Positions 3,381-31,077 of a stretch of 64,000 nt of DNA are shown here, piece by piece. Position numbers and translations under genes: made by a program. The notes beneath the pieces are model-generated. The model was given only the letters and a program-made list of their open reading frames with translations. It did no database searches and was not told where the DNA came from. The stretch covers positions 47,994 to 111,993 of the forward strand of contig CAYTIW010000002.1 in the NCBI GenBank assembly GCA_964438075.1. Direction: 5' to 3'. Every line of letters begins with the position of its first letter. The stretch's first letter is position 1. The DNA comes from an uncultured Planctomycetales bacterium (GTDB taxonomy: Bacteria > Omnitrophota > Gorgyraeia > Zapsychrales > Fredricksoniimonadaceae).

Positions 3381-3407
3381 GACTTCCTCTTTCTAAAAAA
3401 CAAATGT

Positions 3408-3800
3408 TCAATCGTTCCTTAAGCGGATCTTTACCGTCCCTAGGCTTCGGGCCGTGATCACCCACAGGATGGAATAATAAGGTATTAAAGTAAATACCGC
3501 CAACAGAATAGCCAATCCGGTATTTTGGGTCGTATGTAGCATTGCTGCCAACGTAGCTACAAATAAAACTAAAGGCAGGGCGAAGCTCCACAACACGGCC
3601 TTATTTCCAGGGATGGACTCGATCTGTACTACTACCCTGCGGCCTGGAAAGAGATCCGTTCTTTCTGTGGTCATACACAATACTTTGGATTTGGACGAAG
3701 AGATGTCCGGGGTAGGATTGATCTCTACCCAGACAACTTTGTCCTTGAACGCGGTCACGGTGCCTGAATACTCTTTTGTCGTCCCGGAATTAATTGACAT
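3408..3800 (-). CDS. Small membrane protein, RseC/MucC (SoxR-reducing system)-like architecture
   Basis: 130 aa with a soluble N-terminal beta-rich segment followed by two C-terminal TM helices (AVLWSFALPLVLFVATLAAM and GLAILLAVFTLIPYYSILWVI). The assignment rests on architecture only. Confidence 0.3.
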   Translation of the reverse strand: MSINSGTTKEYSGTVTAFKDKVVWVEINPTPDISSSKSKVLCMTTERTDLFPGRRVVVQIESIPGNKAVLWSFALPLVLFVATLAAMLHTTQNTGLAILLAVFTLIPYYSILWVITARSLGTVKIRLRND

Positions 3801-3961
3801 GCTTGCCCATGGGCTGAACCTTTGAACTGCCTGTCTGAACTATAGGAAAGATCCACAAATCCTGGCTGAATATACTCTTCCTCAATTACAGTGTCAAGCC
3901 AATGAGTTAAAAGATAGCACGTATATAAATCAGAACCACGTTTTGACACCCGGCTCAAAGA

Positions 3962-10647: not shown

Positions 10648-13600
10648 TCATGGCCTATCAGGATAACCATACACCCTGATACGGCTTGGTGCCTCCCCTC
10701 CGGCGCCATAAATGACACTATTGACTGCAAAATTGCTGTTAAAACTCAAAGCGGAATATTTTGTTTGCCCAGAAAAAGTCATATCATAAAGTTGGATATT
10801 TTCATGCAAAGCGGCAAAATTAACTTCCGCAGAGAACCTCCTGATATAATCACCTGCAAGAGTAATTGATTTCTCGGTACATAAGTGTGTTCCCCATGTT
10901 TCCAGATCGATAACTGTGTTTGTTGTACGCAGAATGCCATTTTCCGGTCCCATCTCCCAACTCCCGTGAGACAATCTACTGGAGACAATGGCCATGTGCC
11001 GGGGGCCGCTTTGACTCCCAGGCTCTCCAGATGCCGACTTCCCCAATGGTCGCGCTACAATATCAACCGTTGTATCTTTACGGTTGACATTCAAGGCATG
11101 CCGAGCGTTCATCTCCCGCGCGAACTGTTTAAAGGCCAGTTCACGATCCGATTGGAATCCCCTTCCGGCCCGATAATTTGAGAATTGTTCGATGTTTGTT
11201 TTTGCTATCCAGTCACCCATCCCCCAGCCTATTACCGCCCCCGCCCAACCGCCTGCGAAACTGTCCCAATTGTCCATCTGAGCGGCGTAAGCCACACTTC
11301 CGGCGAACATGCTCCCCAGAACAAAACCACCTATCATATTATGTGACCCGGAAGCCCAGCCGCCAACACAGCCCAGCACTCCTCCCAGCGCCGCCCCGGT
11401 GATAATCCCGTTACCTTGCGCGCCATTGAGCGCTGCAGTTGTCGCTCCCCCCGCTGCGCCGCCAAGAGCGCCTGCCAGCCAACCTGAAAGACCATAACCG
11501 GCCGGCCCTAGGACTATTCCCAGCGCCACGCCGACGACCGCCCCCGCTGCGCTGTTCAGAAAGCTTTTCCAGTTCCAGCCATAACCCGAAGGGTCAACCA
11601 AACTTACAGGATTGTTCCGGCAATACGAATAGCGGTTCAGGTCCTGCGGGTCGAAAGGATGCTGCACTGTCGGGTCCGCCGTAATGAACCTTCCTAGTTT
11701 GGGATTGTAATAGCGGGCCCCGAAAAAGACAAGCCCAGCCTCGGCATCTATTTTCTTCCCGGTAAAATAGAACCAAGCGACCTTGGGTGATGTGCCGTAC
11801 TTTTCACAGTTCTTGATTTCTCCCCAGGGAGTGAATTCAACTTTTTCCTCGACAAACGACTTCTCGTCGAGCACCAGACTGGTGGACCCCAAATGGTCAC
11901 CGATAAACCAGCGCAAAGTGACTCCGTCGAAAGCTGCGACACGCATGCCGCCGAGAAACAGGTGGTCGATCTCAATACCGTCGCTTTTTTCGTACAGTTC
12001 ACCGACATACGTTGTGGTCACTGCGCTGGCCCCCTTGTTCGAGAAAACGGTCTTCATGGTCCGCCCACCGTCACCGTCGTAGGCATAAGATGCCACCGGG
12101 TAACGTGTGACAGTGCCGGCATCGGTAAACTCCACTTGGACAAGCCTGTTATCAGCGTCGTAGGCGAAATATTGCGTCTTTTCTAATCCGGTCATAACGG
12201 TTAGATTACCGTTGGGGTCATAGGACATGCTGGTCCCGTCAGACAGCGACGTTACTGCATGTGGACCAGAACCGTTCTGTCCGTAGGTATAGACCAGTCT
12301 GCCTTTTTGAAGAAGGTTGCCGGTCTCATCGTAGCGGTAATTAACGACAATACCGTTATCGTTCGATATCACCATTCGGCCCAAAGCGTCGTAAGCGAAG
12401 GTCATGTTAAGGCCCTTTAAATCATCACTCAATTTGACTACATTGCCCACAGGATCATAGTGGTAGCTTTTGGACTGAATGATATTTCCGATAGGGTCTT
12501 TTACGACCTGCCGTAAAAGGCGGGATGTCAACGGGTCATATGAATAAACAACCGTTGTACCGTTGCCGTAATTGAGGGCAGCGATATTGCCGTTGGCAGT
12601 GTAGATGATACCGGTAATGATGTCTTTGGTGGAAGCAACGCTACCGGACATAACCTGAAATTTCAACGTTTTCAACAGTCCCGATGAGGCATCATAGCCG
12701 TAGACAGCTGTACCATTGCCATCCGGGTAAGTCAAGCTAATGATCCTGCCTAAAGCATCATAAGTCCGACTGACCCGGTATGTATCCTGTCCAATAATTT
12801 TGCTGCTCGAGATCTCATCGCCGACGGCATTATAGGTAAAAATGGTCTTGCCAGAGGGATAGTTAACCCCTGTCAGACGTCCGCGTCCGAAATCCGGCGA
12901 TGTGTCGTAGTCGTAGGCGACCAGTTCAAAGCTGCTATCCGAAAGGGTCTTTACGAGTGGGCGTCCCAGGCTATCGAAGGCAAAGGCCACTTGTACACCT
13001 TTAGCGTCGACCTGACTCTTAAGTTGCCCTAGAGGATCGTATTCGTAAATCATTCCGTGCATATCCTGGTCATTCATGGCGGTCTTGCGGCCGAGAGTGT
13101 CGTAAGACATGGACGTGATTTTTCCTTTAGCATCGATGACTTGCGTCAGGTTCCCAGATAAGTCATATACATATTTAGTAGTGGCATAAAGCTGATACGG
13201 CTCGGCAGGATAATAAGAACTGCGGCCGTCCGCCCCTAAATACTCCTCGCGCGCGATTATACGTCCACGCGCATCGACGACGGAACGTTCCTGGTGTCCG
13301 TTGGCATCTATGACGGTCACCCCATGGCTGTCATAATCCCTGGTCTCATAGTTGCCATCCGGGAAATTAATACGGACAGTACGTCCCTGGTCGTCATATG
13401 TATACTTTATCCCCGGACGGGAACTGTTGACGGTGTCTGGAAAGGTCAAAGAGAGGGTGGTAAGAAAGGGTTGGTACGAGGTCTCGAGTGCTCCCCGAGC
13501 GTCGTATGATACTTGGCCGGAAGCTACGTATTTCCCGTTCTCATCGGACTTCGCCTTGGTCATTATGACACGTCCGAGGCCGTCATAGTAGGTATAGCTG

Positions 13601-16600
13601 TCAAGAGTGCCGGGTTGATCATGATTGATCCGGCTTTTTGTCGCGACCACGTAATAACTAGCCCACTGAGCGTACTCCCACGATCTTGTGGGATAGGCAA
13701 AACTGTCCAGCGGAGACACCAAGGATAACGGACGGCCCCAGACATCATAGGTCCGCCATACTTTCTGCTGGTTAGGGTCCACTATAAGTTTCAGCTGGCC
13801 GAAAATTCCTGATCCCTCTGACGTGCTCTCGTTCACGCCATAATACTCGCGGGTCACTTTATGCTTGAGGTCGTTCTCGACCGATACCACGAAAAGCTTA
13901 TAAACGCTGTCCATACTATATCGGGTCTGATGGCCAAGGGCGTCGGTTATGCCCGAAAGGTTCCCGTATTCATCATAGCTGAAGTCTTTGGCGATCCAGC
14001 TTTCCGTTTTATTCAAACTGTTCCAGGTTTCGTTCTTTATGATAAGGCCGTTGGCATCGTAGTTGAACCGGTCTTTACTCAGGTAATTGCCGGATTGATC
14101 AGTGACCACGCTGGCCTGCAACAAGCCCAATATCCAGAAAGAAATATCGTTAGTATATGTTAAGGCAGTGGTCACGCGGTCATCCCCAATATCGTTACCC
14201 GTGTTGAAGTCCACATCGCCGTAATCAATGGTTTTGACCAGGTCACCGAATTTTTCCGTCGTGTTCCATTGATAGATAAAATCTTGTCTGGTACGCCTCC
14301 CGGAAGATCCGGCGTCATATAAAGATTTGTCTATATCAGCCAGGTAGATAAAAGATGAATCGGTAAACCCGTTACCTCGAAAGTATATCGGGAGCCAGTC
14401 CTTTGAATACCAATGATAGTTGGTTCTTTGAAGAAGTTTCCCGTAGCGGTCATAATTGGATACCGTTACCGGACGACCTCGGAAATACACATTGGCCCCG
14501 TTGGTATTGAACGAAGTCTCTATCCGGCCGCCGTAGGCATCTTTAACCGTTGTCCTGGAAAAACCCATAAATTCTCTGGCTGACGGGTCCCATCTCCCCC
14601 CGCTATAGGAATATGAGGTACGGTATACTTCTCCTTGTTTCCATAAAACAGATACCGCTACTTCAGTCACCAGTGGAAGCACAAAAGGCATATTAAGTTG
14701 CTGGAAAGCGGTGGATGGTTGATAGACCACCGATGTTTTTGCGCCCCTTCCATTCTCTAGCGACTTCAGCAGGTCGGGTATCGGACCGGAGCTGTAGGCC
14801 AGTTCAGTGGTCACATTCGAGCCGGCGATATAAGCCATCGCGTCCGTCAGACCGTCTCCGTTATAATCCCCTGGCTGTATCTGGGCGTTGGGATCTTTTA
14901 AGGAAAAGGGCGCTGGCATATCAGAAGCCGGGCCGAAATAGACCGTAATAATACCGCGCCTGATAGAGGGACGGAAAGTGATCTTACCGTTAGGCCAGTC
15001 GTAGTACGCTATATCTGTGCGGCCGTCCTGGTTGAAGTCGGCCAACAACGGATTCCGGTCAGTACCGAAACCGGACTGCACATGGAAAGCGGATCCTCTT
15101 CCGTGCCCGTCTGTGTTCTCGAAAACCACCCAATCCCCGTTGGATCGTTTGAAGGCATAAATGTCCGCCATTTGGTCGGCATTGAAGTCGCCGGTCATGA
15201 CGGCATAGCTGCTGTCACCGTAAGGCAGTGTTTGTACAGGGTCAGCGCTAAAACCATTGGCACGGTTGTTAATCCATATCTGGACCTTTAAAGACGCGTC
15301 GGTCTTCTTTAGAAGGATATCCGTGTAACCGTCACCGTTAAAGTCGCCGGTAGCGATATCAGCGTTCTGCCCCAGTGAGCTGGCCCAGAATCCTTTATCA
15401 AAAAAACTCCGGATAGCGTTGCTCCAGCTGCTGGGCTTGCTCAGCGCGACCCTTAGGCTCCCCGCTGTAATATCATAAGCGGCGATATCGGTGGAACCGT
15501 CACCGTTAAAGTCACCCAGGACGATCTTTTGATTAATGCCGAAATTCCCGATCCAGTTCTGGGGCGGGAGGAATCCCGAGTTACTTGACAAGGCCACTTT
15601 TACATTGCCTGTGTCAGGGTAAAAGGCAGCAGTATCCACTCGCCCATCTCCGTTGAAATCCCCAGCCAGGTTGGAGACTAAAGACATTGTGGAATTCATA
15701 AGATCCACCTTGCTGGCCAGATCGAAACCCAGATCGAAGGTGAAGGATTCATGCTGGTGGTAATCAGTCACTAATATCAGGTTATATCCTGCTACTAGAG
15801 ACAAGGAAGTGCGGTTGACAACACTGGAACCGTTAAGGTATATCCCCCACTCCCCCCCTCCACTCCCAGAAAGCGGAATGGTTTTAGCCTGGTTAACGTA
15901 CACATATGTCCAGCATTGACAGGCCTCATCCTGTCCCGAAGAAAAAGTCAGCCGGCCGTTGTTGTTGATCGACCAGGATACGCCATCCGGGACTGTTCCC
16001 GAGGCTTTGGTATACACCGCACCCATGTCAACATCGAACCCAGGGACCGGGCCGTAGTTCTCATGGCCGCGGTCATAACCAGCTCCGAACTGGCAGTTCC
16101 ACAATTTATCACCCGACGTTTTCGTCGTAGTTACGCTATAGGTGGCCGAGGTCTGGCTGGTGTAGCTGATTTTGAATAATATGCGCGAGGTCGTATTATC
16201 TGAAGCGTATTCCGTGATACTGTTCAGGAATGAACGTCCCGATGTCAGGCTGTTTGAATAAGAAAATTGATATCTCCGCATCCGTATGCCGTTGGCCCTT
16301 ATCGTGAGAGCGGTGATCAGGTTCTTTTCTTTCACTGCAAAACCTGGCCGGTAATCTACAGAATAATTATAAGAATTGCTCGGAGTGACATAACTGGTGA
16401 TGACGTAGGCAAAATTGTTCGTGCTATTCAAGTCGGCAGCGGCGGGGTCCAGTCCGGCTTTCAACACGTAACGGATCTCAAAACTTCCATCAGAATGATA
16501 ATCAATAACATATAAATTGTTCAAACGGTCCGTGACCTTGTCCAGCCGCCATTTGAATACACGGCCGTTGTTTTCGATATTAGAACCTGGGCGGCTACCG

Positions 16601-17073
16601 AAAAAATACGAAACCCCTTTAGGGTCCTGGACGACCCAATAATTTCCCGTATCGATGAATTTAAGCCTGTCCTCCTCCACGCGGGCACGGTATTCATTAG
16701 TGCCGACCTTCACCAGCTCGTAGATCTTTCCGCCTAGGCTGCAAAGGAAGGTATCGTTAGGGCTGTAGGCAGGCACCCCTTTTCTGGTAGAACGAGTTAT
16801 ATAGCCTAGGTCCATGGACCATCCGTTGCCGAAGGGTCCGCTGCCTGATAAGGAAGAATAGGATAGATTAATTGAAGGAGCTATGCCGCGACGTCCTTCG
16901 GGGGTAAAAAGCGGTATGATCGCGCTAGCGCCACCGGTCGATGGGTCGACCGTTATGTTATTAGAAAAAGATTGAGTCTGGGTGTCTGCCCACGAGGGGA
17001 CAGTCAGACCGATCCAGCCGGATACAAATAACATGCCCCCCATGATAAAATTTCTAGTTGCAAACAGTCGCAT
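10648..17073 (-). CDS. Giant secreted SpvB–FG-GAP–RHS/YD-repeat protein (Tc-toxin B/C-fusion-like polymorphic toxin) with C-terminal payload
   Basis: Signal peptide MRLFATRNFIMGGMLFVSGWIGLTVPSWA with an AGGAAAGG RBS; the ORF track's longer N-terminal extension to 17277 is probably not translated. The SpvB-like N-domain contains PSINLSYSSLSGSGPFGNGWSMDLGYITRSTRKGVPAY. Six FG-GAP/VCBS-like repeats follow (GDFNGDGRVDTAAF, GDFNGDGSTDIAAY, GDFNGDGYTDIL, GDFNADQMADIYAF, ADFNQDGRTDIAYY, GDYNGDGLTDAMAY). More than 25 YD/RHS repeats of the YxYDxxGR type come next. The RHS core ends at PVSLVDPSGY, at about 11581. A 310-aa variable C-terminus follows. Confidence 0.8.
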   Translation of the reverse strand: MRLFATRNFIMGGMLFVSGWIGLTVPSWADTQTQSFSNNITVDPSTGGASAIIPLFTPEGRRGIAPSINLSYSSLSGSGPFGNGWSMDLGYITRSTRKGVPAYSPNDTFLCSLGGKIYELVKVGTNEYRARVEEDRLKFIDTGNYWVVQDPKGVSYFFGSRPGSNIENNGRVFKWRLDKVTDRLNNLYVIDYHSDGSFEIRYVLKAGLDPAAADLNSTNNFAYVITSYVTPSNSYNYSVDYRPGFAVKEKNLITALTIRANGIRMRRYQFSYSNSLTSGRSFLNSITEYASDNTTSRILFKISYTSQTSATYSVTTTKTSGDKLWNCQFGAGYDRGHENYGPVPGFDVDMGAVYTKASGTVPDGVSWSINNNGRLTFSSGQDEACQCWTYVYVNQAKTIPLSGSGGGEWGIYLNGSSVVNRTSLSLVAGYNLILVTDYHQHESFTFDLGFDLASKVDLMNSTMSLVSNLAGDFNGDGRVDTAAFYPDTGNVKVALSSNSGFLPPQNWIGNFGINQKIVLGDFNGDGSTDIAAYDITAGSLRVALSKPSSWSNAIRSFFDKGFWASSLGQNADIATGDFNGDGYTDILLKKTDASLKVQIWINNRANGFSADPVQTLPYGDSSYAVMTGDFNADQMADIYAFKRSNGDWVVFENTDGHGRGSAFHVQSGFGTDRNPLLADFNQDGRTDIAYYDWPNGKITFRPSIRRGIITVYFGPASDMPAPFSLKDPNAQIQPGDYNGDGLTDAMAYIAGSNVTTELAYSSGPIPDLLKSLENGRGAKTSVVYQPSTAFQQLNMPFVLPLVTEVAVSVLWKQGEVYRTSYSYSGGRWDPSAREFMGFSRTTVKDAYGGRIETSFNTNGANVYFRGRPVTVSNYDRYGKLLQRTNYHWYSKDWLPIYFRGNGFTDSSFIYLADIDKSLYDAGSSGRRTRQDFIYQWNTTEKFGDLVKTIDYGDVDFNTGNDIGDDRVTTALTYTNDISFWILGLLQASVVTDQSGNYLSKDRFNYDANGLIIKNETWNSLNKTESWIAKDFSYDEYGNLSGITDALGHQTRYSMDSVYKLFVVSVENDLKHKVTREYYGVNESTSEGSGIFGQLKLIVDPNQQKVWRTYDVWGRPLSLVSPLDSFAYPTRSWEYAQWASYYVVATKSRINHDQPGTLDSYTYYDGLGRVIMTKAKSDENGKYVASGQVSYDARGALETSYQPFLTTLSLTFPDTVNSSRPGIKYTYDDQGRTVRINFPDGNYETRDYDSHGVTVIDANGHQERSVVDARGRIIAREEYLGADGRSSYYPAEPYQLYATTKYVYDLSGNLTQVIDAKGKITSMSYDTLGRKTAMNDQDMHGMIYEYDPLGQLKSQVDAKGVQVAFAFDSLGRPLVKTLSDSSFELVAYDYDTSPDFGRGRLTGVNYPSGKTIFTYNAVGDEISSSKIIGQDTYRVSRTYDALGRIISLTYPDGNGTAVYGYDASSGLLKTLKFQVMSGSVASTKDIITGIIYTANGNIAALNYGNGTTVVYSYDPLTSRLLRQVVKDPIGNIIQSKSYHYDPVGNVVKLSDDLKGLNMTFAYDALGRMVISNDNGIVVNYRYDETGNLLQKGRLVYTYGQNGSGPHAVTSLSDGTSMSYDPNGNLTVMTGLEKTQYFAYDADNRLVQVEFTDAGTVTRYPVASYAYDGDGGRTMKTVFSNKGASAVTTTYVGELYEKSDGIEIDHLFLGGMRVAAFDGVTLRWFIGDHLGSTSLVLDEKSFVEEKVEFTPWGEIKNCEKYGTSPKVAWFYFTGKKIDAEAGLVFFGARYYNPKLGRFITADPTVQHPFDPQDLNRYSYCRNNPVSLVDPSGYGWNWKSFLNSAAGAVVGVALGIVLGPAGYGLSGWLAGALGGAAGGATTAALNGAQGNGIITGAALGGVLGCVGGWASGSHNMIGGFVLGSMFAGSVAYAAQMDNWDSFAGGWAGAVIGWGMGDWIAKTNIEQFSNYRAGRGFQSDRELAFKQFAREMNARHALNVNRKDTTVDIVARPLGKSASGEPGSQSGPRHMAIVSSRLSHGSWEMGPENGILRTTNTVIDLETWGTHLCTEKSITLAGDYIRRFSAEVNFAALHENIQLYDMTFSGQTKYSALSFNSNFAVNSVIYGAGGEAPSRIRVYGYPDRP

Positions 17074-17420
17074 AGCATTGCCTTTCCTGTTCATTGAACT
17101 TTTTCCGGCTGGGGGTAACCGTAAGAATCTTGGGGGCCGCATTGCAGGTATCAAAACAACAAATAAACCGCGCCGTCTAGCGGATCGATAGCACATACCG
17201 GGATGTGCTCGGGGGCGGGGATCCAGGTAGGGTTGTAACCGGCGCGGAAAGCCGGGGCATTCGCCAGCCAGGAGCATCCTGGCAATGGAAATTTGTCTAA
17301 GCAGTAATGTCCTGCACGATTATGTCGATGAAATCCGGCGTAATAATTTAATGTTCCAGGTTGATAACCAAATATAGAAAGTCATGAAAACAGGCTTCCC
17401 TTTGCCTGTCAAAGACCCGA

Positions 17421-20804: not shown

Positions 20805-21164
20805 ATGAAACCAGCCATCCTTATCGGTAACAACCAAGAAGAGACAGCGGAACAGTTAAAATCTATATTGTCCTACACCTTCCCGCTGATCGTAGTGACG
20901 GATGGAGATCAATGCCTGGCGGCACTGAAGCAAGGATCCTCGATCGGACTGGCCTTTGTCGGGTCTGACATTGATCTATCCGGTCAATTGTTCGAAAAGA
21001 TGCGGGAGCTAAGCCCCCGGCTGACCATAATAGCCATCGGAGAAGCTGGATCAGAAGGGGGAGCAGTTGAGGCGGTAAGTCGAGGCGCGAACGGTTATAT
21101 CATGCTGCCACTTCGCAATAATGACGTAATGTCACTGGCCCAAAAATATGCCTTTCCGGCATAA
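20805..21164 (+). CDS. Receiver (REC)-like single-domain protein, atypical
   Basis: CheY-like beta-alpha layout. A candidate phospho-acceptor Asp sits in LAFVGSDIDL, but the conserved Lys of the KP motif is missing (the position reads MLPL). Confidence 0.35.
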   Translation: MKPAILIGNNQEETAEQLKSILSYTFPLIVVTDGDQCLAALKQGSSIGLAFVGSDIDLSGQLFEKMRELSPRLTIIAIGEAGSEGGAVEAVSRGANGYIMLPLRNNDVMSLAQKYAFPA

Positions 21165-21212: not shown

Positions 21213-24200
21213 CTAGTTATTTGGGATACCAAGGAAGGACTGGATGCTACTTAAAGGCCGCATGTCGATAAGTACCGGTGAGAAACCCGGCATGGCATCG
21301 AAACGCCTGACCATGATCGGGTCGACATTGAATTTCACACCGCCGCCCGAGTTTTGCACCTGCAGGTCCAGCCGGTCAGTGTTAAAGTCGATACCACCGT
21401 AGACGGCCTCTTTCATGGCAAAGTCGAACTGCCAGGCTACCGACGATGTGCTCTTCAACTTTATCTCTCCCTTTTGGCGGGAAGCATATTTTTTGAAGAA
21501 TTCCAACGACCTGGTCCGGCTGAAAGGTATAAAGGCTAAAGACATCTTTCCAGCGGCACGCAGTTCCCCGATGAGACGGTCCAGCAGAAGCGAGCCCAAC
21601 CCGCTGGGCGCATCCGGAAGCGAGGCGACACGCGAAAGGTAAGGCTCAGCAGAATTTATCCGTGAACAGATAGAGAACCCGATGATTTGGCCGTCCTTCT
21701 GCGCCCAGTATACCTTGACGTCAGGGTCTTTAAGATAGGCCTCGATGGTCCCGCGTTCCAGTCGGTGGTTCCGGCCGAAATCGGGGTTGTTCTGAAAACG
21801 GGCCTGCCGGTCTACCCGGGCGATACCGTCAACCACGGCTTCCAGGTTCTCCGCCGTGACCGATTCTCCCACCACCACGCCCTCGATCGATCCCTGCGCC
21901 GGATCAGCATCATCCGTTCCCTGCTGCCCTTCAGACGCAGTCCCTTTCCCAGGCGTTACAAGCTTACGCTGAAACTCAACGGTCCCTTTAGTGACATTGA
22001 TCTCTGCACGTAATTGATCATTAGTGTTATTCATGTTAAAAAGATATATCCTCACGATGTCCGGTAAGGCTAATTCAATATTATCATAGTAATAATTTTT
22101 AAAGTTCGGCAGGCCGGAACGGTTAGCCAGTAAGAGGCGAAAAGCTTCCGCGACATTACGCTGGGCGTTCAACGCTTCGGCTGAGTACGTGGCAAGACCC
22201 TCACGCTGCAGGAAAGCCATGGCATCATAGGTGGCTTGGAAGGCCAGGGCCTCATCTTCAAGCGCACCTATACCAGGGGCCATGTAATAATCCCGCACAT
22301 GCCTGCCTTCGTGGGCTATTTTTATTGCCAGAAGGGCGAAGGCTTCCTTATCGCTCAAACCCTCGAAGGCGTCGGCACTCACCACGACAAGCTTGCTTGT
22401 CACTATCGTCATAGCATAACTACGGTGCGCAGTGCCCAGGGAACTCTCCCGGCTCAATCCGGTCAAAAACAAGACCCTTAAGGGGGGCGTGTCGGACGGC
22501 AAAAGGCCGTTGTCCTTAAGAAAACTTTCCACCTCTCCGGCCCAGGCCTGTTTGGCTACCGATATTTCTATGGACCGTTTCAATTGCTCAGGAGTAATCT
22601 CTCCCATCCTGGAGCCATGGCTATAAATGAGCTCCGGCGTCAGGTCGTCCCATCCGGCAGGAAGGTTTATCGTCGTCCCGGGAGGTTCCTGTAGAGTATT
22701 GATGGGTTCACATCCCACCCCGAAGGTCAGCGACGCCACCAACAAAATCCCGCTTAATGCGCGGAACAATGACCGCTGCGCCCGGTCCAGTACTTGTTCT
22801 CGGCTGAGGCTGTCTTCACGTGCCGGGAATATCTTTCTGGCCGTAAAAGCATCCAAAGGATCCACATGGTGAACGAATTCCGCAGGGAGGTCGTAATAGA
22901 AAGCGACCTCTTCTTCGACGTCTCCCTTTTGGGCCACGACCGGACGATTGTCTGTCAGCCAGTCGACAGGGATCCGGTAAGTGACCACCGTGCCGTTCCC
23001 GATAGTGGCCGCCCGCCTGGCCATTTCCGGATTGAGGGTGGTATGCAAGGTGGCATCATTTTCCGCACCCCTTTGGGCGATATTCCGCAAGACCGCCTCC
23101 TCGACGGAAGCGCCGTATCTTTTGTAGGCCTCTTCCTTGGGGATGTTATTGGCAGCAGCCAAGGACTGATGGGCCGCCCCCTTGATGGCATCCGGGCTTA
23201 CATTCTTAAGCCCACGGTAGACGAATATGAACGAACGGCCGTTCCTGTCGACTGTGCGATTGAAATCTTTAAGCGTGGCGGTACGACCCGGCACCTGGAC
23301 GAGCCCCACCGGTTCGTTTTCAGGTATTGAGGGCCATTTCCGGGAAAGGTCCGGGAACGCGCTCTGCGCCCTATCTGTATCCCGGCCGGTCTGGACGCGT
23401 TCCCGTAAGAACACAAAGGGTTGGAACTGCACGGTCCCCTTGTCGGTATTTATTTTTACCTGCGCCAGTCCCCCGTTCTCTTCATTTACCAGGTCTATCA
23501 GTATTACGGAAGGCGCCCTCAAACTCACGATGGATACATTGGTGTAGTAGTAATTCTGGAAATCTTTTATCTTGTTTTTACCCGTCATCCACAGGAAAAA
23601 GGCCTTGGCCACTGCCCGCTGGGCATCTAGCTGGTCCCTTGAATAGGATGCCCGGCCCTCTTGGGACAGTTTTTCCATCACTGTAACGGTGTTCTGATAA
23701 GCCCGCGCCTCGCTGGCCATCTTTTCACCAGGCGTCGGATTGAGATTGGCCCGGAAGTCATCAGTGTGGGTGCCTTCATGCGCGTATTTGATCGCCAAGA
23801 GCGGGAAGGCGTCCCGCTCGCCGAGCCCCTCAAACGCGTCAGCACTTACCACGATCAGCTCGTTGCCTCTTTCCGATATCGCCAAGGCAAAACTGGCATG
23901 GTGGGGGCCCAATGATCCAGGGCGGCTCAAGCCTTTCAGGAAAAGAATACGTATCGGCGGGCTGTCTTTATTGAGTATGCCCTTTTCCATCAGGAAACTG
24001 CGCACATCATTGACCAGCGGTCTTTTAGAATCAGAGAATTCTATCGATTCTTTTAATTGATTCTCAGATATCCGGCCCATCACAGTGGCGTTACGGTAAA
24101 GAAGGTCCGGCGTGATCCCCTGCCATTCCTGCTGCTGTTCGGTTGTGACCGGCGTCTTTGGGATAAGATCCTGGGCACTGACCGGTGAATTCCCGCTGGA

Positions 24201-25382
24201 CAGCCCTACGGCAAGAATAATAAGCCCTCCGGCTATTACACGTGAGAGTTGGGCGCGGTCATGGGTTATGTTCAGAGATATGTCCGAGAGCATGGAGTAA
24301 TCAAACCCGCCGGAGAAATATTTTCGGGGTAATATCTCCTGCGAATAGGGGTCCTGCTCTTCCTTGATGTAATTGTAGGCGCCCTTTTTGAAAGCTTCGA
24401 CGTACTGTTGCCAGATGCGCCGGGACATTTCCGGGTCATCGATGTTCACGCCTGTCACTTTTTTACGGTCCACATAGACCTTGCTCAGGAGGCTTTCTTT
24501 AACTTTTTTCTTGAACCACGCGGCCAGGATTAGAGACCGGTATACCTGACGTACCGGGGCAAAGTTCCTGCCTTCGTTGACCTCTTTTTCCAGTTCAGGG
24601 AGGATTATTTCACGCAAGATCTGTTTGGACAGGTCCCGGGTGGCGCTCACCGCGTCCGAGTCCCCGTTGGATACGCTGGCGGATCTCTTCTCGTCTGTGT
24701 TCGCTTCCCTGCTATCCAATATCCTCTCCTGCGCTAGATAATCTGATTCCAGCAGGACTTTTAAATGGCTCTCGATGACCAGGGACTGGCCTTCGTTCTC
24801 GAATACCTCGGCCTTATCCGGGGTGATCCAGACCTTGTTGAAGGTGTCCATCGGGATATCGGTCGTGCCGAACATCTCGAAAGCGGCTTGGTAGACCTTG
24901 GACCAGAATTTTTTGCCTACCTCACCCTCTGGATACATCACCGAAGCCGTGATCTGTTTCAAAAGGTAATCCTGTTCCAGCAAGTCTCTGCCCATTTCGG
25001 TCTGCCCGAACTCGTTAGTGATGATACGCTCCTGTTCATATGGCGACAGGTTGACCCACAGGTCCTTTTCGGGCATTGTCAGAGAGGTCAGGAAATAGCG
25101 GATAAGTCTTCCGGATTCCTCCTTGAGGGCATCGGCATCCAGCCGTTCTTCGCCGGGGTCCAGGATGAAATCAAAACGGAACGGGTTGTCGGGATAGACT
25201 TTGATACCTTTAAGCGAGGGAGGGTTGAAAGCCTGGCTCAGCGGCACTAAACTGCCCGGCGGGGGCATGCTTACCAGAGTCTGGGCAGACGACGGGTAGA
25301 CCGCAGTTAGGGCAAAGATAACCGCCATCCCAATGCAAACACTTTTTCGCCAGGAGTGTAGCTTTTGCCAATGCATAAGCAT
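21213..25382 (-). CDS. 1389-aa chimeric secreted/membrane protein: N-terminal domain, two tandem HExxH zincin-like modules, C-terminal GNAT-like domain
   Basis: N-terminal signal peptide. Two internal signal-peptide-like hydrophobic segments at ~24195-24245 (RVIAGGLIILAVGLSSGNSPVSAQD) and ~22705-22770 (LFRALSGILLVASLTFGVGCEP). Two paralogous ~460-aa modules with HExxH motifs: AIKYAHEGTHTDD at ~23770 and AIKIAHEGRHVRD at ~22300. C-terminal PSGLGSLLLDRLIGELRAAGK is a GNAT motif-A-like stretch. Confidence 0.6.
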   Translation of the reverse strand: MLMHWQKLHSWRKSVCIGMAVIFALTAVYPSSAQTLVSMPPPGSLVPLSQAFNPPSLKGIKVYPDNPFRFDFILDPGEERLDADALKEESGRLIRYFLTSLTMPEKDLWVNLSPYEQERIITNEFGQTEMGRDLLEQDYLLKQITASVMYPEGEVGKKFWSKVYQAAFEMFGTTDIPMDTFNKVWITPDKAEVFENEGQSLVIESHLKVLLESDYLAQERILDSREANTDEKRSASVSNGDSDAVSATRDLSKQILREIILPELEKEVNEGRNFAPVRQVYRSLILAAWFKKKVKESLLSKVYVDRKKVTGVNIDDPEMSRRIWQQYVEAFKKGAYNYIKEEQDPYSQEILPRKYFSGGFDYSMLSDISLNITHDRAQLSRVIAGGLIILAVGLSSGNSPVSAQDLIPKTPVTTEQQQEWQGITPDLLYRNATVMGRISENQLKESIEFSDSKRPLVNDVRSFLMEKGILNKDSPPIRILFLKGLSRPGSLGPHHASFALAISERGNELIVVSADAFEGLGERDAFPLLAIKYAHEGTHTDDFRANLNPTPGEKMASEARAYQNTVTVMEKLSQEGRASYSRDQLDAQRAVAKAFFLWMTGKNKIKDFQNYYYTNVSIVSLRAPSVILIDLVNEENGGLAQVKINTDKGTVQFQPFVFLRERVQTGRDTDRAQSAFPDLSRKWPSIPENEPVGLVQVPGRTATLKDFNRTVDRNGRSFIFVYRGLKNVSPDAIKGAAHQSLAAANNIPKEEAYKRYGASVEEAVLRNIAQRGAENDATLHTTLNPEMARRAATIGNGTVVTYRIPVDWLTDNRPVVAQKGDVEEEVAFYYDLPAEFVHHVDPLDAFTARKIFPAREDSLSREQVLDRAQRSLFRALSGILLVASLTFGVGCEPINTLQEPPGTTINLPAGWDDLTPELIYSHGSRMGEITPEQLKRSIEISVAKQAWAGEVESFLKDNGLLPSDTPPLRVLFLTGLSRESSLGTAHRSYAMTIVTSKLVVVSADAFEGLSDKEAFALLAIKIAHEGRHVRDYYMAPGIGALEDEALAFQATYDAMAFLQREGLATYSAEALNAQRNVAEAFRLLLANRSGLPNFKNYYYDNIELALPDIVRIYLFNMNNTNDQLRAEINVTKGTVEFQRKLVTPGKGTASEGQQGTDDADPAQGSIEGVVVGESVTAENLEAVVDGIARVDRQARFQNNPDFGRNHRLERGTIEAYLKDPDVKVYWAQKDGQIIGFSICSRINSAEPYLSRVASLPDAPSGLGSLLLDRLIGELRAAGKMSLAFIPFSRTRSLEFFKKYASRQKGEIKLKSTSSVAWQFDFAMKEAVYGGIDFNTDRLDLQVQNSGGGVKFNVDPIMVRRFDAMPGFSPVLIDMRPLSSIQSFLGIPNN

Positions 25383-25575: not shown

Positions 25576-28500
25576 CTAATTGATTGTGATCGGATTACCA
25601 GCCAAAGAATTGTTGGTTTCATTCTGCTCCGGCCGGGAATTCAGATAATCCACTATCGCTCCTATATAATATGTACCGACGGGTATGCTAGTGGATAAAG
25701 TAACCGAAGTTGTGGCGCTACTGGTCTGACCGACATTAAGGGAGCTTACTGACCTTCGGCCTAGATATCTGTCCGAGGTATTTATAACCACGTCGGTCGA
25801 AAGATAATAGGCCACGTAGAATGACGAGCAATTGCCGCTTCCCTGATTACGGACAGAATCGTTTATCGCGATAGAACTGCCGCGCGTCCCGGTTGCCGGA
25901 CCAGAAACACTGCTCACGACCAGGTCCGGTCCAGGGGTTATTACTATCTGGGGCCCGGCCAGGGCGTTATTGCTTTCGTCCTGCTCCACCCTGGCGTTGG
26001 AATAATCAGCCAGCACGCCAATGTAATAAGTGCCCGGTGAAAGCGTGGTGGAAAGTGTCACGGTGGTGCTACCCGAGCTGCTGGCCTGTGAATTAAGCGC
26101 ACTGACCGAGCGGCTCCCGACGCGGGTATCGGAGGTTGTGATTATCGCATCGGAGGAAAGATATAGCCCCACATAGAATGATCCACCTTTTCCCGGGCCT
26201 TGGTTCTTCACAGTGTCTGTTAACGTTAGGGGGCCGCCGGTCACTGCTCCGGCAGGTCCGCCGACGGTGGTCATGACCATGTCCTCCCCGGGCGTGACGG
26301 GCATAGACAGAACGGCCGACAAGTTATTGGTCTCGTTGCTTTCAGCCTGGGCGTTGTTATAATCGGCGATGGCTCCGACGTAATAAGTGCCGGGTGTAAC
26401 GACAATATTGGAGAGGGTCGTCGTAGCCGTGCTTGTTGCGTCAGGCAAAAGGACGCTCACGCTCCTGCGTCCCAGATAAGTGTCGGATGTCGTGATGTTG
26501 GCGTCCAGTGACAGATAATACGCCACATAAAACGTGCCGGTCCTGCCCGGCCCCTGGTTCTTGACCGTATCGGTAAAGCTCATCGTCGTGCCGGATACAT
26601 AACTGGTCGGGGCCTGGAAGGCGGTGATCGCCAGGTCCACGCCGGAAGACAAAGAGACCTGGGTAACGGAAGCGGCCATGTTGTTCGCTTCATTACTCTC
26701 GGGACGGGTATTGTTGTAATCCGCTATCGCTCCAAGATAATAATTCCCGGCGGGAATGGTGGCAGGAATAAGTATACTTGGAGACTGGTTGGCTATTGCG
26801 CCGCCCCCAAGACTTGAGATATAGGCGTTACCTAGATAGCGGTCACTGGTGGTGATTACGGCGTCGTCTGATAAGTAATAACCAACGTAAAAACTGCTGC
26901 TGGTGCCAGTGCCTTGGTTTTTGACCGAACTGCTCATGATCATATAAGTACCGCTTTGGAAGCTGGCCGGGGGATTGCCTAGCGTGTTCATGACCAGATC
27001 CGCGCTCGATACCTGCACAGGAGTGGCAGTACAACGTGTATTGTTGTCTTCGGCCGATTCGTTCACCACGGCCCCGCTGTCAGCTTTAGCGCAAAGGAAA
27101 TAAGCGCCTTCGACCGCTGTAGCCGGGATCAAGACCGAGGTGGAGGTTCCGCTCGAGGCCCCGGCAGCCAGCGAGGAGACGGAACGCGTGGGTGTCAACA
27201 CAACGTCATCGCTGCCGCCGTAGGTGTTGTCTGCCGACAGGTGGAATTCGATCACAAAAGCGGCCGCCGCCGAAGTGCCTTGGTTCTTGACGGTATTGCT
27301 TAGGCTGAGATAACTGCCCTTGGCCACATTAGCGGTAGTGGTTGAAAGGGCCGTCAGGATCAAGTCCACCGAGGGGATGTCATTGACCGTGATGGTTATA
27401 TTCTCCGAATCAGTGAGCGTACCGTCTGTTGCCGCTATTGTTACCGGATAGTTCCCTGCTTGGTTGTAATTGGGCGTCCAGGAGAATGCGCCAGAGCTGC
27501 TATTAAAGACCGCCCCCGATGGCAGGCCGCTGGCCGAATAGGTGACGGTATCTCCGTCCGGGTCGCTGGCATAGACGGAAAAGTTCAATGTCTGCCCCTC
27601 GTTGACGGTCTTGTTGCCGATGGTATTCAGCACCGGCGCCTGGTTCACATATTGGATACCGTCTGAATAACCGGTTCCGCTCCACACTTCAGCCTGATTC
27701 TTGGCCTTCACGCAGAAAAAGTAGATCTGGCCGGCGGTCAGATTGAGGTCCATGGCCGATACCGCTTCCGCCGTGACTGGCGTCCAATCGCGGACAATAG
27801 GTCCGTCTACCGCCGCGCTGCGGATTTGATACTGATATTCAGCGACGCCCGTATCAAGGTCTTCGCTATGCCATTGCGCGGACAATTGGGTCGCGCTGTG
27901 CGTTTGGTCACCGGAATCAGTTACGACCGGCACCGAAGGCGGCGTGAGATCTTGCGGGACTTCATGCTTCCCCATGTCGATAGCAGTTCCACCGTTCAGA
28001 GGCACCGCCGACAATGGATCGCCAGTGTTCACACAGGGCGAATTGCGCTCTATGTGGAAGTCGCCGTTGGCCATATCGACGAAAAGCGGGTCGGCATTGA
28101 TGTTCCCCGCCCCCACTCCGGGATGCGATGAATTGATATCATTGTAGCTGGCCTTGACCGTCGCTCCCGGAGCGGTTGAAAAGGTCAAGGTATTGTTCCA
28201 TACGATGGAATTATGGAATTCCGAGACCGAATTGTCATTCGACCTGATCACTAGCGGGTTAGACGTTCCGTTATTGGCAAGAACGGACGAATCGATGCGG
28301 GTGTAACCATACTGGGCAGCCATGATCTCGGTGGCGTTATTGTCACTCAATATCGACCGCTCGACCAACAAGGTGGATATGTCCGAACCCGTCTCCATTC
28401 TCTGGACGACCGAAGTATTGGCGAACATCTTTCCGCCAGTATTGTTCCTGATGAGGGCATTATTCAGTATTAAATTGCCCATCCATGAATCCACGTCCAG

Positions 28501-31077
28501 CTTAACGAGATTAATATTGTTCGTGTTGTTTTCGAACAGGCTGTCCTTGATCCAGCTCTGGTAGTTCCCGTTACGGAGCGAGAATTCGATCAAAGAACCG
28601 TTGCGGTCGTTCCCGGACAGCTTAAGGCCAACGAAGCCTATTTGCGAACCCATTCCCGGAACGGAGATTGCTGCCGCATTATCATCCGAGTCGATTATCT
28701 CTACATCACGCAACAGCACCGCGATAAAGTCCGGGGCGGCATGCAGCACTTTCCCTGAAAAGGCCTGTCCTTTCTTTGTCAGTATCATGTGTTCGATCAG
28801 AGAAACGGCGCTTGGCCCGGGGAATCCTTCCTGGACAATACTGACCAGAGTATCGGTGCCGTCCGGGTCTAATATCACCGGCTTGCTCTGGGCCGGATTA
28901 CCCATCAACCTGACCCCTACCGGCAAGGTCAGGTTCTCCTGATATGTACCGCTGTTGACGCGCACCACCTTGGTGGTAGTGTTCTTGGCCACGTCGATCG
29001 CCTGCTGGATGGTGGGATAATCCTGAGGGACGCGCACTATGTCGAATAACGGGAAATAGGAAGCGCCAATATCCCTGATCGTTCCGTCTGGATCGGGACT
29101 GTCCGCCGGGTCGCCGCCGTTAACACAGAGTGAGGTGTTTATAAGCTTGGACTCGTTGTCCACGAATTCACGGTCCCAAACGATACCAGGCCCCGTTCCC
29201 TTGAAACTGGCTGGTACCAGTGAATACGAAACATCCATATTGGATAGATAACCTCCATTGGTAGGCTGTCCCATCTGTCCCCGTCCAACAATCGTATTGG
29301 ACATCCTTCCTTTGACCGGATTTGGGAAGACACCTTCCATCATCATGGCATACATGATTGTACAGTTCTTGAATCGCAGCCTCGGTGTACCAATGCCGAC
29401 GATCTTGGAATTGATATAACAGTATTCAAAATCAGCGGCCAGCTCATCCCCGTCCGCGTTGATCTCCAACTGCACGGAACTGAAACGCCAATCGTTCGGC
29501 GGCGGGGAGAAACGGACAGGGTTGTCCACTGTCCCCTTGGCCACCAACCTCCCGCCTGGCTGTATCGATATCTTGCCTCCATAGAAATCGCTCAGGACAG
29601 TAACTCCCGGCTGCAACACCAATGTTGTGCCAGCAGGTATGATCAGATCCATGCTCATCACGTAATAACCCGGCGGCAAGGTCATGGTGTTGCCGTTAAT
29701 GATAAAATCGGAAGTCTCCAGATAATTTGTGTCGGAGACCACCAGACTGGCGTTAGCTGTACCGTAAACGACATCCCCGCTGGAAACATCCTTTATGTCA
29801 AAACTTATGGAATAGGTTCCCGCCGGCAACCCATCCGGAGGGAGGAAAGATACCGTTATCTCTCCGTCAGCATTACCGCTTAACGGTGAGACTGAAACAT
29901 AGCTGCCCAATTCCGGGGCGCTGAAAGAGACCGGTCCAACTGCCCACTGGCAGCCATTAAATGACTGGACGGATATCCGAAGGGGGTCAAGCTGGCCGGT
30001 ACCAGTATCCAGATTGTAATTGCGCTGCCCGGAAAGAAGATTGCGGTCGACGTAGATCCTGGGGCTCTCCAGGAAATCCTGGCTGGTCAACTTCAGATAG
30101 GGGTCGCCGAGCAGGATATCCTGTCCCGCGAAACGATGGATATCGCCGATGCTGGGATACCCGTATTGCATAAAAGTACGGACGAACCTTTTGGCAAAAT
30201 CGCTGTCGCTGTGGGGCTCGCCTTTACCGGCAATGGCAGAATAATAGGTCCGGTGGTTTATGTAGGTGACTCTGGGGTCATCGTTTACTCCTGACCAAAA
30301 GGCGGCCGAGGAACAGCCAAAGGCGTGATAGAACGGGGACATCGTGGTGTTCAAATTGGCGTAAGCGTACCTATTCATACCGCAGCCATAGCCATGGCTG
30401 GTATTCATGTGGATGCTGGATTGGCCGACCACATCCCGAAGCTGAAAGTCGGTGAGAGTGCAGCAGGTTGTCCCCACTTCCAGGTATGGCGACACGATCC
30501 TGCGTACTTCGTCGGCGGTATAGAAATTATCCCCGCCATAACACTCGATGAACATGTTTATCCGGTCCTCTCCTGATGGGATGAGAAAGCCGCCCGAGCC
30601 TCCCGGCAGTATTTTTTGATAGTAATTCTCAATATCCGTGACAGTGTTGGCAGGCAAACGCCCAATGGCAATCTCCGGTCCGGCAAAGAAGGAAGTATAA
30701 AATTGGTCGGAGGTGGCGGATATTACCAGACTGCCGTTCATGACCGGGTTGATAAGAGGTATCTTGGTATAGCCCCCCACCAAGAAAATATATTCTGTCC
30801 CCCACCCCGCGGGTTCTTGCGGATAAAGCGTGTTCTGAAAATAAGCCTTGATCTCCTGCCAGGTGGGCTGGCCAGGCAGAACGGCCGGGATCTCGTCAAG
30901 TGTAACTACTCTGGCCTGGTGGTCGGCATCATAGGAACGAAGAGCGCGGATAGGCTCAACCGCCGTTCGCCATTCGGGCCTGGTCACGATCACATAATAA
31001 TATTCAGCGGCGAAAGCAGGCCCGGCCCACAATAAAACCACTAATAAAAGGCTGAAAAAGAACGCTATTTTTTTCAT
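25576..31077 (-). CDS. Giant secreted clan-CD cysteine peptidase (C25/gingipain-like) with beta-helix, Ig-like/FN3-like domains and six CARDB repeats
   Basis: Signal peptide. The C25-like N-domain (YYYVIVTRPEWRTAVEPIRALRSYDADHQARVVTLDEI...YIFLVGGYTKIPL) carries a His-Gly dyad in NTSHGYGCG (~30370-30400) and a catalytic-Cys candidate in HAFGCSSAAF (~30313). An NxT-rich right-handed beta-helix segment follows. An He_PIG-like Ig domain (VNQAPVLNTIGNKTVNEGQTLNFSVYASDPDGDTVTYS) is present. Six tandem CARDB-like repeats (DLxxxxxxxP...TVKNQG...F.V..YLS.D..IT..D..LG...V..L...)  occupy ~25576-27400. Confidence 0.75.
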   Translation of the reverse strand: MKKIAFFFSLLLVVLLWAGPAFAAEYYYVIVTRPEWRTAVEPIRALRSYDADHQARVVTLDEIPAVLPGQPTWQEIKAYFQNTLYPQEPAGWGTEYIFLVGGYTKIPLINPVMNGSLVISATSDQFYTSFFAGPEIAIGRLPANTVTDIENYYQKILPGGSGGFLIPSGEDRINMFIECYGGDNFYTADEVRRIVSPYLEVGTTCCTLTDFQLRDVVGQSSIHMNTSHGYGCGMNRYAYANLNTTMSPFYHAFGCSSAAFWSGVNDDPRVTYINHRTYYSAIAGKGEPHSDSDFAKRFVRTFMQYGYPSIGDIHRFAGQDILLGDPYLKLTSQDFLESPRIYVDRNLLSGQRNYNLDTGTGQLDPLRISVQSFNGCQWAVGPVSFSAPELGSYVSVSPLSGNADGEITVSFLPPDGLPAGTYSISFDIKDVSSGDVVYGTANASLVVSDTNYLETSDFIINGNTMTLPPGYYVMSMDLIIPAGTTLVLQPGVTVLSDFYGGKISIQPGGRLVAKGTVDNPVRFSPPPNDWRFSSVQLEINADGDELAADFEYCYINSKIVGIGTPRLRFKNCTIMYAMMMEGVFPNPVKGRMSNTIVGRGQMGQPTNGGYLSNMDVSYSLVPASFKGTGPGIVWDREFVDNESKLINTSLCVNGGDPADSPDPDGTIRDIGASYFPLFDIVRVPQDYPTIQQAIDVAKNTTTKVVRVNSGTYQENLTLPVGVRLMGNPAQSKPVILDPDGTDTLVSIVQEGFPGPSAVSLIEHMILTKKGQAFSGKVLHAAPDFIAVLLRDVEIIDSDDNAAAISVPGMGSQIGFVGLKLSGNDRNGSLIEFSLRNGNYQSWIKDSLFENNTNNINLVKLDVDSWMGNLILNNALIRNNTGGKMFANTSVVQRMETGSDISTLLVERSILSDNNATEIMAAQYGYTRIDSSVLANNGTSNPLVIRSNDNSVSEFHNSIVWNNTLTFSTAPGATVKASYNDINSSHPGVGAGNINADPLFVDMANGDFHIERNSPCVNTGDPLSAVPLNGGTAIDMGKHEVPQDLTPPSVPVVTDSGDQTHSATQLSAQWHSEDLDTGVAEYQYQIRSAAVDGPIVRDWTPVTAEAVSAMDLNLTAGQIYFFCVKAKNQAEVWSGTGYSDGIQYVNQAPVLNTIGNKTVNEGQTLNFSVYASDPDGDTVTYSASGLPSGAVFNSSSGAFSWTPNYNQAGNYPVTIAATDGTLTDSENITITVNDIPSVDLILTALSTTTANVAKGSYLSLSNTVKNQGTSAAAAFVIEFHLSADNTYGGSDDVVLTPTRSVSSLAAGASSGTSTSVLIPATAVEGAYFLCAKADSGAVVNESAEDNNTRCTATPVQVSSADLVMNTLGNPPASFQSGTYMIMSSSVKNQGTGTSSSFYVGYYLSDDAVITTSDRYLGNAYISSLGGGAIANQSPSILIPATIPAGNYYLGAIADYNNTRPESNEANNMAASVTQVSLSSGVDLAITAFQAPTSYVSGTTMSFTDTVKNQGPGRTGTFYVAYYLSLDANITTSDTYLGRRSVSVLLPDATSTATTTLSNIVVTPGTYYVGAIADYNNAQAESNETNNLSAVLSMPVTPGEDMVMTTVGGPAGAVTGGPLTLTDTVKNQGPGKGGSFYVGLYLSSDAIITTSDTRVGSRSVSALNSQASSSGSTTVTLSTTLSPGTYYIGVLADYSNARVEQDESNNALAGPQIVITPGPDLVVSSVSGPATGTRGSSIAINDSVRNQGSGNCSSFYVAYYLSTDVVINTSDRYLGRRSVSSLNVGQTSSATTSVTLSTSIPVGTYYIGAIVDYLNSRPEQNETNNSLAGNPITIN

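Follow-up and report, generated by a model that had tools for sequence, protein, structure and literature searches.

The closest described systems are the long multi-enzyme proteins of the bacterial phylum Omnitrophota, which carry signal peptides or transmembrane (TM) segments. According to a 2026 preprint, these chains are mostly signal-peptide and/or TM proteins that combine several enzymes, including methyltransferase, HATPase and GNAT domains, which are listed together as a set that co-occurs, and 93 of the long proteins are listed with GNAT (bioRxiv 10.64898/2026.06.07.730766). Embedded peptidases have been proposed to cut the giant Omnitrophota proteins (bioRxiv 10.64898/2026.06.07.730766; West-Roberts et al. 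2023, bioRxiv 10.1101/2023.11.21.568195), and a predatory or parasitic lifestyle has been proposed for these widespread ultra-small bacteria. The protein described here is encoded by a single unbroken open reading frame (ORF) at 21213..25382 on the minus strand of a 64,000-nucleotide stretch of contig CAYTIW010000002.1 (hereafter, the window), and comprises 1389 amino acids (aa) followed by a stop codon. It shares with the long Omnitrophota proteins the phylum, an N-terminal signal peptide, scattered internal hydrophobic segments, putative embedded peptidases and strings of normally cytoplasmic enzyme domains, and its HExxH module recurs inside proteins of 2,000–6,400 aa. It differs in length, since the proteins in the published studies have at least 10,000 aa against its 1,389 aa, and in possessing a conserved frame that giant carriers of the HExxH module lack. 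Neither this frame nor the HExxH module nor the DxA[M/Q] punctuation is mentioned in the searched passages of the two Omnitrophota papers.

The ORF belongs to a very large, Omnitrophota-specific, multi-copy family with a fixed frame around variable cargo. Searched against 5.8 billion proteins, the ORF had over 3,900 significant matches, whose named sources are almost all Candidatus Omnitrophota/Omnitrophica, and the similarity spans only the first ~27% of the query. When the 120 best matches were examined by local BLAST, aa 34–375 (the N-domain) were common to all 120, at 55–65% identity and E values down to 1e-152, and the last ~65 residues (aa ~1324–1389, the C-tail) were matched in 118 of them at 40–56% identity. 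The region between N-domain and tail shares no similarity with any other of the 120 top homologues, and for the cargo at aa 376–1311 the protein's own cluster is the only match at E ≤ 1e-3 in the whole database. The tail of the homologues follows the consensus GGIDxN...[FI]xxDP...PGFxPVIIxIQP...FLGL, with G10, G11, I12, D13, G47, P50, P57 and F64 invariant in the tail alignment (A4). At their N-termini the homologues have typical Sec signal peptides that finish in a conserved ..[SA][YF]A↓Q end (the arrow marks a cleavage site), and that of the query is built in the same way, with a basic n-region, an h-region of ~14 residues (hydrophobic aa 15–33) and the end ..YPSSA↓QT. The N-terminal signal peptide of the original prediction is thus conserved across the family. 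A frame of signal peptide, N-domain, cargo and tail is common to thousands of Omnitrophota proteins, and it is the N-domain together with the C-tail that defines the identity of the protein.

The cargo within this frame is highly diverse. Precomputed Pfam annotations of the homologues include S-adenosylmethionine (SAM)-dependent methyltransferases, HATPase, PP2C, Ser/Thr kinases, phosphoribosyltransferases, PLD, NUDIX, radical SAM, SNF2 helicase, adenosine deaminase, PGK, EPSP synthase, glycosyltransferases, GDSL lipase, GGDEF, M48, M23, TPR/HEAT and GNAT. No curated family matches the two frame domains, the HExxH module or the junction motif: the N-domain and tail have no match in Pfam, NCBIfam, PHROGs or PDB sequences, nor does the N-domain match a PDB fold, and a tail profile searched against PDB sequences gave nothing significant. 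The tail was also considered as a repeat of the N-domain end (GGIDxN compared with SGGFDY), a candidate rejected at an hhalign probability of 0.4%. A pattern scan of species-representative genomes located 276 family loci, and 80 of these were listed with taxon labels and gene neighbourhoods. Nearly all of the 80 are labelled Omnitrophota/Omnitrophica or ‘uncultured Planctomycetales’ metagenome-assembled genomes, with single loci in Phenylobacterium, in Candidatus Elulimicrobium (NCBI: Patescibacteria group) and in a plain ‘bacterium’, and several assemblies hold at least 3–5 family loci each. At six of the 80 loci (L023, L037, L041, L048, L071 and L075) two family N-domain ORFs lie within ~13 kb of each other; tandem paralogues of this kind could be a substrate for cargo exchange.

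With moderate confidence, we infer an exported frame-and-cargo multi-enzyme protein that most likely acts as an effector. The signal peptide would route the chain through Sec, and the N-domain and C-tail would probably be shared sorting, anchoring or delivery devices for the intervening cargo, the tail resembling a C-terminal sorting domain to some extent in its action. The HExxH zincins could have proteins of the envelope or of a target as substrates, or trim the junctions of their own protein, and GNAT, kinase and methyltransferase cargo would act inside another cell. GNAT domains need acetyl-CoA, and SAM- and ATP-dependent enzymes need their own cofactors; because these are lacking outside cells, exported cargo of these types points to action within another cell. 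This suggests that the family is an effector arsenal delivered to host or prey by putatively predatory or parasitic nanobacteria. It is an obvious candidate for such an arsenal, and so bears on the question of how these bacteria act on other cells; the N-domain profile, the tail profile and the junction motif provide experimental handles. The ORF itself is one ordinary member, through which a large and uncharacterised family was revealed.

Several points weigh against this reading. The sorting or delivery role of the N-domain and tail is argued from architecture only, neither having a detectable relative of known function, and the effector idea is built on the cofactors that the cargo needs and on the lifestyle proposed in the literature. 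The 80 loci were searched for recurrent neighbours, for instance immunity genes or secretion systems; none was found, nor any other conserved partner, the commonest neighbour occurring at 6 of the 80. At least one family member, P0040, contains six strong TM segments internally, together with a glycosyltransferase family 2 (GT2) domain expected to be cytoplasmic, so that internal segments of family proteins may be genuine TM helices. Furthermore, the hydrophobicity figures given below come from a Kyte-Doolittle scan and from a scale after Hessa et al. 2005, the latter applied without position weighting, and are crude.

Two better-known kinds of system resemble the ORF by analogy only. Polymorphic and MARTX toxins, reportedly treated by Zhang and Aravind in 2012 and by Satchell, respectively, have conserved trafficking parts with variable enzymatic payloads, many paralogues per genome and internal ‘releasing’ peptidases, and the variable effectors of MARTX toxins are flanked by conserved regions at the N- and C-terminal ends. 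No sequence or fold similarity between these toxins and the ORF was detected. In polymorphic toxins the variable toxin lies at the extreme C-terminus and is accompanied by an adjacent immunity gene, whereas the C-terminus of the ORF is the conserved tail and neither an immunity gene nor secretion genes recur at the 80 family loci; export of the ORF family also begins with a plain Sec signal peptide. Cargo proteins of the type IX secretion system (T9SS) are alike in having a Sec signal peptide, unrelated middle domains and a small conserved C-terminal domain across paralogues. The tail of the ORF, however, has no match in Pfam (E ≤ 1), which we take to include a model of the T9SS C-terminal sorting domain, or in NCBIfam or PDB sequences, and the ORF family has a large conserved N-domain besides. 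To our knowledge, T9SS is not known in Omnitrophota.

The cargo of the ORF is arranged as a leader with an HExxH module, an orphan module, a second leader with an HExxH module and a GNAT domain. A hydropathy scan detected exactly three strongly hydrophobic stretches, at aa 15–33, 379–398 and 872–891, and the two internal segments shaped like signal peptides that had been proposed originally are therefore present at the nucleotide positions given for them. Both contain 13–16 apolar residues, a membrane span taking ~19–21 aa, with Kyte-Doolittle peaks over 19 residues of 1.69 and 1.74 and crude insertion energies per 19 residues of +3.7 and +2.6 kcal/mol, compared with +3.1 kcal/mol for the N-terminal signal peptide. 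These leaders belong to the HExxH cassette: a hydrophobic leader precedes the HExxH domain by 60–110 residues in ~19 of the 24 relatives with upstream sequence available, and the pairing holds even at positions 2,500–4,800 of giant proteins. In at least five relatives the leader is canonical for twin-arginine translocation (Tat), reading SRRAFLK, TRRSFLK, SRREFLK, SRRQLLK or SRRDFLK (the [ST]RRxFLK motif is carried by P0126, P0127, P0137, P0138 and P0139), and in several it is followed by a lipobox-type Cys (IIGC in P0130, LAAC in P0125, and FLGC). The leaders of the query have single arginines (LSRV and QRSLFR) and no Tat motif. Leader 1 has no Cys, and the lipobox-like GC noted for leader 2 is not canonical, as its FGVGC end, with Gly at −3, departs from [LVI][ASTVI][GAS]C. 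Canonical or near-canonical Tat motifs with an h-region were also observed deep inside proteins of 1,000–6,400 aa, at positions up to ~4,800 and in each case 60–110 residues ahead of the zincin-like domain (P0126, P0133, P0137, P0138, P0139 and P0140). We know of no export mechanism that employs internal Tat signals.

Since the leader is kept in most relatives, including the giants, the HExxH module resembles a former Tat- or Sec-exported (lipo)protein that moved together with its leader, and it looks like one captured in this way. This preserves part of the earlier proposal that three ancestral secreted-protein genes were fused, namely that a secreted protein with its signal peptide may have been taken up; the ORF is not, however, a chance chimera of three genes, the architecture being standard for the family. 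A zincin-like family that travels with a leader is also relevant to the passage of giant Omnitrophota proteins through membranes and to their processing. In annotation, the finding accounts for ORFs that resemble ‘chimeras with several signal peptides’, and splitting them is unwarranted.

Whether the leaders act as membrane anchors bears directly on the location of the cargo. At a Kyte-Doolittle threshold of ≥ 1.6, internal hydrophobic segments are absent from 93 of 118 family members, single in 20, paired in four and six in number in one; as most members have none, most are predicted to be exported whole. The original prediction had also considered a multi-pass membrane protein with its paralogous modules facing opposite sides, which we disfavour as a minority possibility. 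In its explicit form, the ORF would be a polytopic inner-membrane protein whose N-domain is periplasmic once the signal peptide has been cleaved, and in which leader 1 acts as a stop-transfer segment that leaves HExxH copy 1 and the orphan module in the cytoplasm, and leader 2 restarts export to place HExxH copy 2, GNAT and the tail in the periplasm, leader 2 possibly being cleaved or lipidated at Cys891. Two internal segments are an even number, so the tail would end up outside, where it is also predicted for the majority of members, which lack leaders; leader 2 has a basic N-flank (RAQRSLFR) that suits an in-to-out orientation; genuine multi-TM members such as P0040 exist; and many long Omnitrophota proteins are predicted in the literature to combine a signal peptide with TM segments. 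On leader 1, however, the basic N-flank would face the periplasm, contrary to the positive-inside rule, and paralogous modules with export-like leaders would occupy different compartments. The leaders are short and no more hydrophobic than the signal peptide, and are therefore probably not stable stop-transfer anchors. In P0124 and P0127, which consist of N-domain, leader, module and tail, a single leader acting as stop-transfer would strand the tail in the cytoplasm, on the wrong side, which favours export of the whole chain, and one-segment members (20) outnumber two-segment members (four). Nor would this model bring the GNAT domain to acetyl-CoA, since the domain would remain outside the cytoplasm. 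Export of the whole chain is thus favoured, with the internal leaders probably providing at most a peripheral or transient attachment to the membrane.

The modules are separated by a short peptide motif, D-x-A-[Q/M], which occurs five times in the ORF (DRAQ at aa 375, 670 and 866, DPAQ at 1160 and DFAM at 1320) against 0.46 expected, with none of 2000 shuffles reaching five. The five sites coincide with all five module boundaries. In 118 homologues, 117 occurrences lie within 30 residues of the N-domain end and 64 within 45 residues before the tail GGI, and within the cargo of 117 homologues 97 were observed against 30 ± 5 expected, a three-fold enrichment. The codons differ between copies, which indicates a constraint on the peptide; a DNA recombination site was rejected on the same ground. 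The motif may serve for cleavage, link the modules or cap a domain.

If the motif were cleaved, the ORF could be a processed polyprotein. Cuts at DRA↓Q (aa 377/378 and 868/869), made by the built-in zincins or by a trans-acting protease, would free fragments with an intact leader at their start (QLSR-h-region-VSA↓QD; QRSLFR-h-region-GVG↓C), and several proteins, each routed separately, would come from a single gene. We consider this rather unlikely. It would account for a motif that marks every boundary, is strongly enriched across the family, is constrained as peptide rather than as DNA and twice stands immediately before a leader, in a chain with embedded peptidase domains, and embedded peptidases have already been proposed in the literature to process giant Omnitrophota proteins. 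The motif, however, could be no more than a structural linker, or a cap where the N-domain ends and the tail begins. Most family members have the motif yet lack an HExxH module of the kind found in the ORF, giant HExxH carriers show no enrichment of the motif (27 observed against 22.5 expected), and the close relative P0121 has THASSR in place of THDRAQ before its leader. A wider version, in which the frame is a previously undescribed, phylum-wide platform that delivers interchangeable cassettes into host or prey cells, the chain being cut at DxA[M/Q] by the zincins into fragments headed by their own signal peptides and so into several differently routed proteins, appears improbable.

Within the exported effector favoured here, the two HExxH modules are probably zinc peptidases, judging from their conserved residues and predicted fold. 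HExxH motifs are present at aa 535 and aa 1024, as the original prediction stated, and the surrounding regions (aa 379–664 and aa 872–1148) are paralogous at 41% identity (E = 1e-62; 41–45% between module copies); the paralogy proposed originally is therefore confirmed, although the modules measure ~290 aa including the leader and not ~460 aa. The two copies are an old duplication (~43% identity), copy 1 being followed by an unrelated, homologue-less region of ~190–200 aa and copy 2 by the GNAT domain. A profile of both copies, used in a full HMMER search of 1.84 billion representatives, matched 29 proteins. A few of these relatives share the frame (P0124 and P0127), and most are Pfam-dark proteins of 1,000–6,400 aa without it. 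The module is absent from the 120 closest frame homologues, which contain unrelated HExxH domains instead. In the 27-sequence alignment (~28% mean identity) the invariant residues are the H, E and H of the motif, a Glu 16–30 residues downstream, one Phe and one Tyr, and invariance of the H/E/H and Glu at such low identity means that the motif is not due to chance. An additional observation concerns P0121 (319 aa), a close relative of copy 1 plus tail, in which the first half of the module is fused to its last part and the HExxH helix is missing; it may have arisen by natural deletion, or may be a fragment from assembly.

AlphaFold2, run with the 27-sequence alignment, gave a model of the module with a predicted local distance difference test score (pLDDT) of 94.3 and a predicted template modelling score (pTM) of 0.90. 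The model consists of a three-stranded sheet, the long HExxH helix, the Glu helix, a third helix and a four-stranded beta subdomain, with HExxH and Glu on consecutive helices (101–124 and 130–150) and a mixed beta-sheet above the active-site helix, as in the zincin fold. A Glu on the helix after HExxH is the classic third ligand of gluzincins (MEROPS clan MA(E)). The module thus resembles gluzincins such as M30 lugdulysin, M1 ERAP1/APN, M48 BepA and the minigluzincins in its HExxH helix, in the Glu on the next helix and in the small beta-sheet before them, and differs from them in an extra cystatin/PepSY-like beta subdomain and in the upstream signal-peptide-like leader. It also lies outside every named Pfam or NCBIfam peptidase family, including the candidates put forward originally (DUF4157, M48, M56 and SprT-like). 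Pfam searches over the 27 members (E ≤ 1) gave no consistent match, with DUF5700 in one member (E = 0.15), and the profile gave nothing significant against PDB sequences, the best being peptide deformylase (E = 0.077). The module represents a new gluzincin-like family.

A non-peptidase role of these modules is quite unlikely. They would then be non-catalytic binding domains or Fe(II)/alpha-ketoglutarate-dependent hydroxylases like ChlH, PflC and BpmH, which belong to pathways for peptides that are made by ribosomes and modified after translation (RiPPs), carry the signature IPR026337 and were long mis-annotated as metallopeptidases (PMC12636437). Those enzymes are cytoplasmic, whereas the module is found in an exported context, with no radical-SAM, precursor-peptide or RiPP genes nearby; the invariant downstream Glu is the gluzincin third ligand, and many true peptidases (M30, M1, M48, M32, minigluzincins and SprT) are also among the hits. 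Neither copy has a match in NCBIfam/TIGRFAM at E ≤ 5, a library that presumably contains an HEXXH-hydroxylase model equivalent to IPR026337, and no sequence-family match to these hydroxylases was obtained.

The GNAT domain is the sole match when the whole protein and each of its pieces are compared with Pfam, NCBIfam and PHROGs. PF00583 matches aa ~1211–1298 with 25.1 bits for the C-terminal fragment and 21.4 bits for the whole protein, above the gathering cut-off of 20.7, in agreement with the C-terminal GNAT domain originally predicted. Motif A of GNAT domains (Q/R-x-x-G-x-G/A) forms the acetyl-CoA pyrophosphate loop, and in the ORF this region reads A-P-S-G-L-G (aa 1258–1263), with the glycines kept and Ala at the first position. 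The pairing with GNAT had been thought undescribed; GNAT cargo is not unique, as the family member P0082 has GNAT domains and so do 93 long Omnitrophota proteins (bioRxiv 10.64898/2026.06.07.730766). The orphan module has no match in Pfam, PDB, NCBIfam or PHROG, and its aa 671–870, searched alone against 5.8e9 proteins, gave no homologue. Within it, aa 722–825 (22908–23219, minus strand) contain the R-S-E motif series of ADP-ribosyltransferases, FVYRG / HTTLNPEMA / EEEV, in the right order and with the right spacing; the pattern also matches 15 of 5000 shuffles of this segment, and an ADP-ribosyltransferase-like identity is a lead only.

The ORF is a single, genuine gene from an Omnitrophota bacterium. 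Its database variants, taken as the members of its 90%-identity cluster in NCBI and Logan assemblies, comprise six versions of the 1389-aa protein on ~10 contigs, all intact, with 0–4 substitutions and zero indels, and their lengths of 1371 or 1389 aa differ only in the called start. That three adjacent genes were fused by a frameshift or misassembly, as the superficial look of three ‘signal peptides’ within one ORF might suggest, has a negligible probability, since indel-free intact variants across separate assemblies exclude a joining by sequencing error, neither internal leader is preceded by a Met or start context, N-domain and C-tail are paired in 118 of 120 homologues, and other proteins also hold leader-bearing HExxH modules internally. 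The coordinates of all parts and of the neighbouring genes are given in Table 1.

Table 1. Parts of the ORF and neighbouring genes, with positions in the window.
Feature	Position	Strand	Basis or remark
Whole gene, 1389 aa + stop	21213..25382	-	Single ORF; six intact variants
N-terminal Sec-type signal peptide (aa 1-33; cleavage predicted at SSA↓Q)	25284..25382	-	Hydropathy; conserved n/h/c design, cleavage inferred
Family N-domain, aa 34-377	24252..25283	-	Conserved across homologues
Junction DRAQ, aa 375-378, N-domain/cargo border	24249..24260	-	One of five DxA[M/Q] motifs
Internal leader 1, aa 379-405, LSRVIAGGLIILAVGLSSGNSPVSA↓QD	24168..24248	-	Hydropathy; insertion energy; aligns with leader 2
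HExxH module copy 1, aa 406-669; H535, E536, H539, E558	23376..24167	-	Paralogy; invariant metal-site residues
Junction DRAQ, aa 670-673	23364..23375	-	Motif scan
Orphan module, aa 674-865	22788..23363	-	No homologue or library match
Junction DRAQ, aa 866-869	22776..22787	-	Motif scan
Internal leader 2, aa 870-891, RSLFRALSGILLVASLTFGVG then Cys	22710..22775	-	Hydropathy; insertion energy; leaders of relatives
HExxH module copy 2, aa 892-1159; H1024, E1025, H1028, E1044	21906..22709	-	Paralogy
Junction DPAQ, aa 1160-1163	21894..21905	-	Motif scan
GNAT module, aa 1164-1319 (Pfam match aa 1211-1298)	21426..21893	-	PF00583
Junction DFAM, aa 1320-1323	21414..21425	-	Motif scan
Family C-tail, aa 1324-1389, GGIDFN...FNVDP...PGFSPVLIDMRP...FLGI	21216..21413	-	118/120 top homologues
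1,833-aa signal-peptide protein, ≥5 CARDB + He_PIG/Big_9 Ig-like domains	25576-31077	-	Directly upstream of the ORF
2,209-aa SpvB, FG-GAP, TcdB_toxin_midN, RHS-repeat protein	10648-17277	-	~4 kb downstream of the ORF
Receiver-domain ORF (response regulator)	20805-21164	+	Adjoins the ORF

The surrounding region is rich in large exported proteins, with no dedicated partner of the ORF evident. The 1,833-aa CARDB protein is probably a surface or adhesion protein, and the 2,209-aa SpvB/RHS protein is a Tc-toxin/Rhs-type encapsulation shell. Past the CARDB gene comes a 296-aa ORF that no Pfam model matches, followed by SpoIID, RuvB, ScpA and a class-I tRNA synthetase. An HTH-cupin regulator and the receiver-domain ORF are located between the ORF and the SpvB/TcdB/RHS gene. 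A small receiver ORF also adjoins family members at five of the 80 loci (L015 among them), a weak association with the family.

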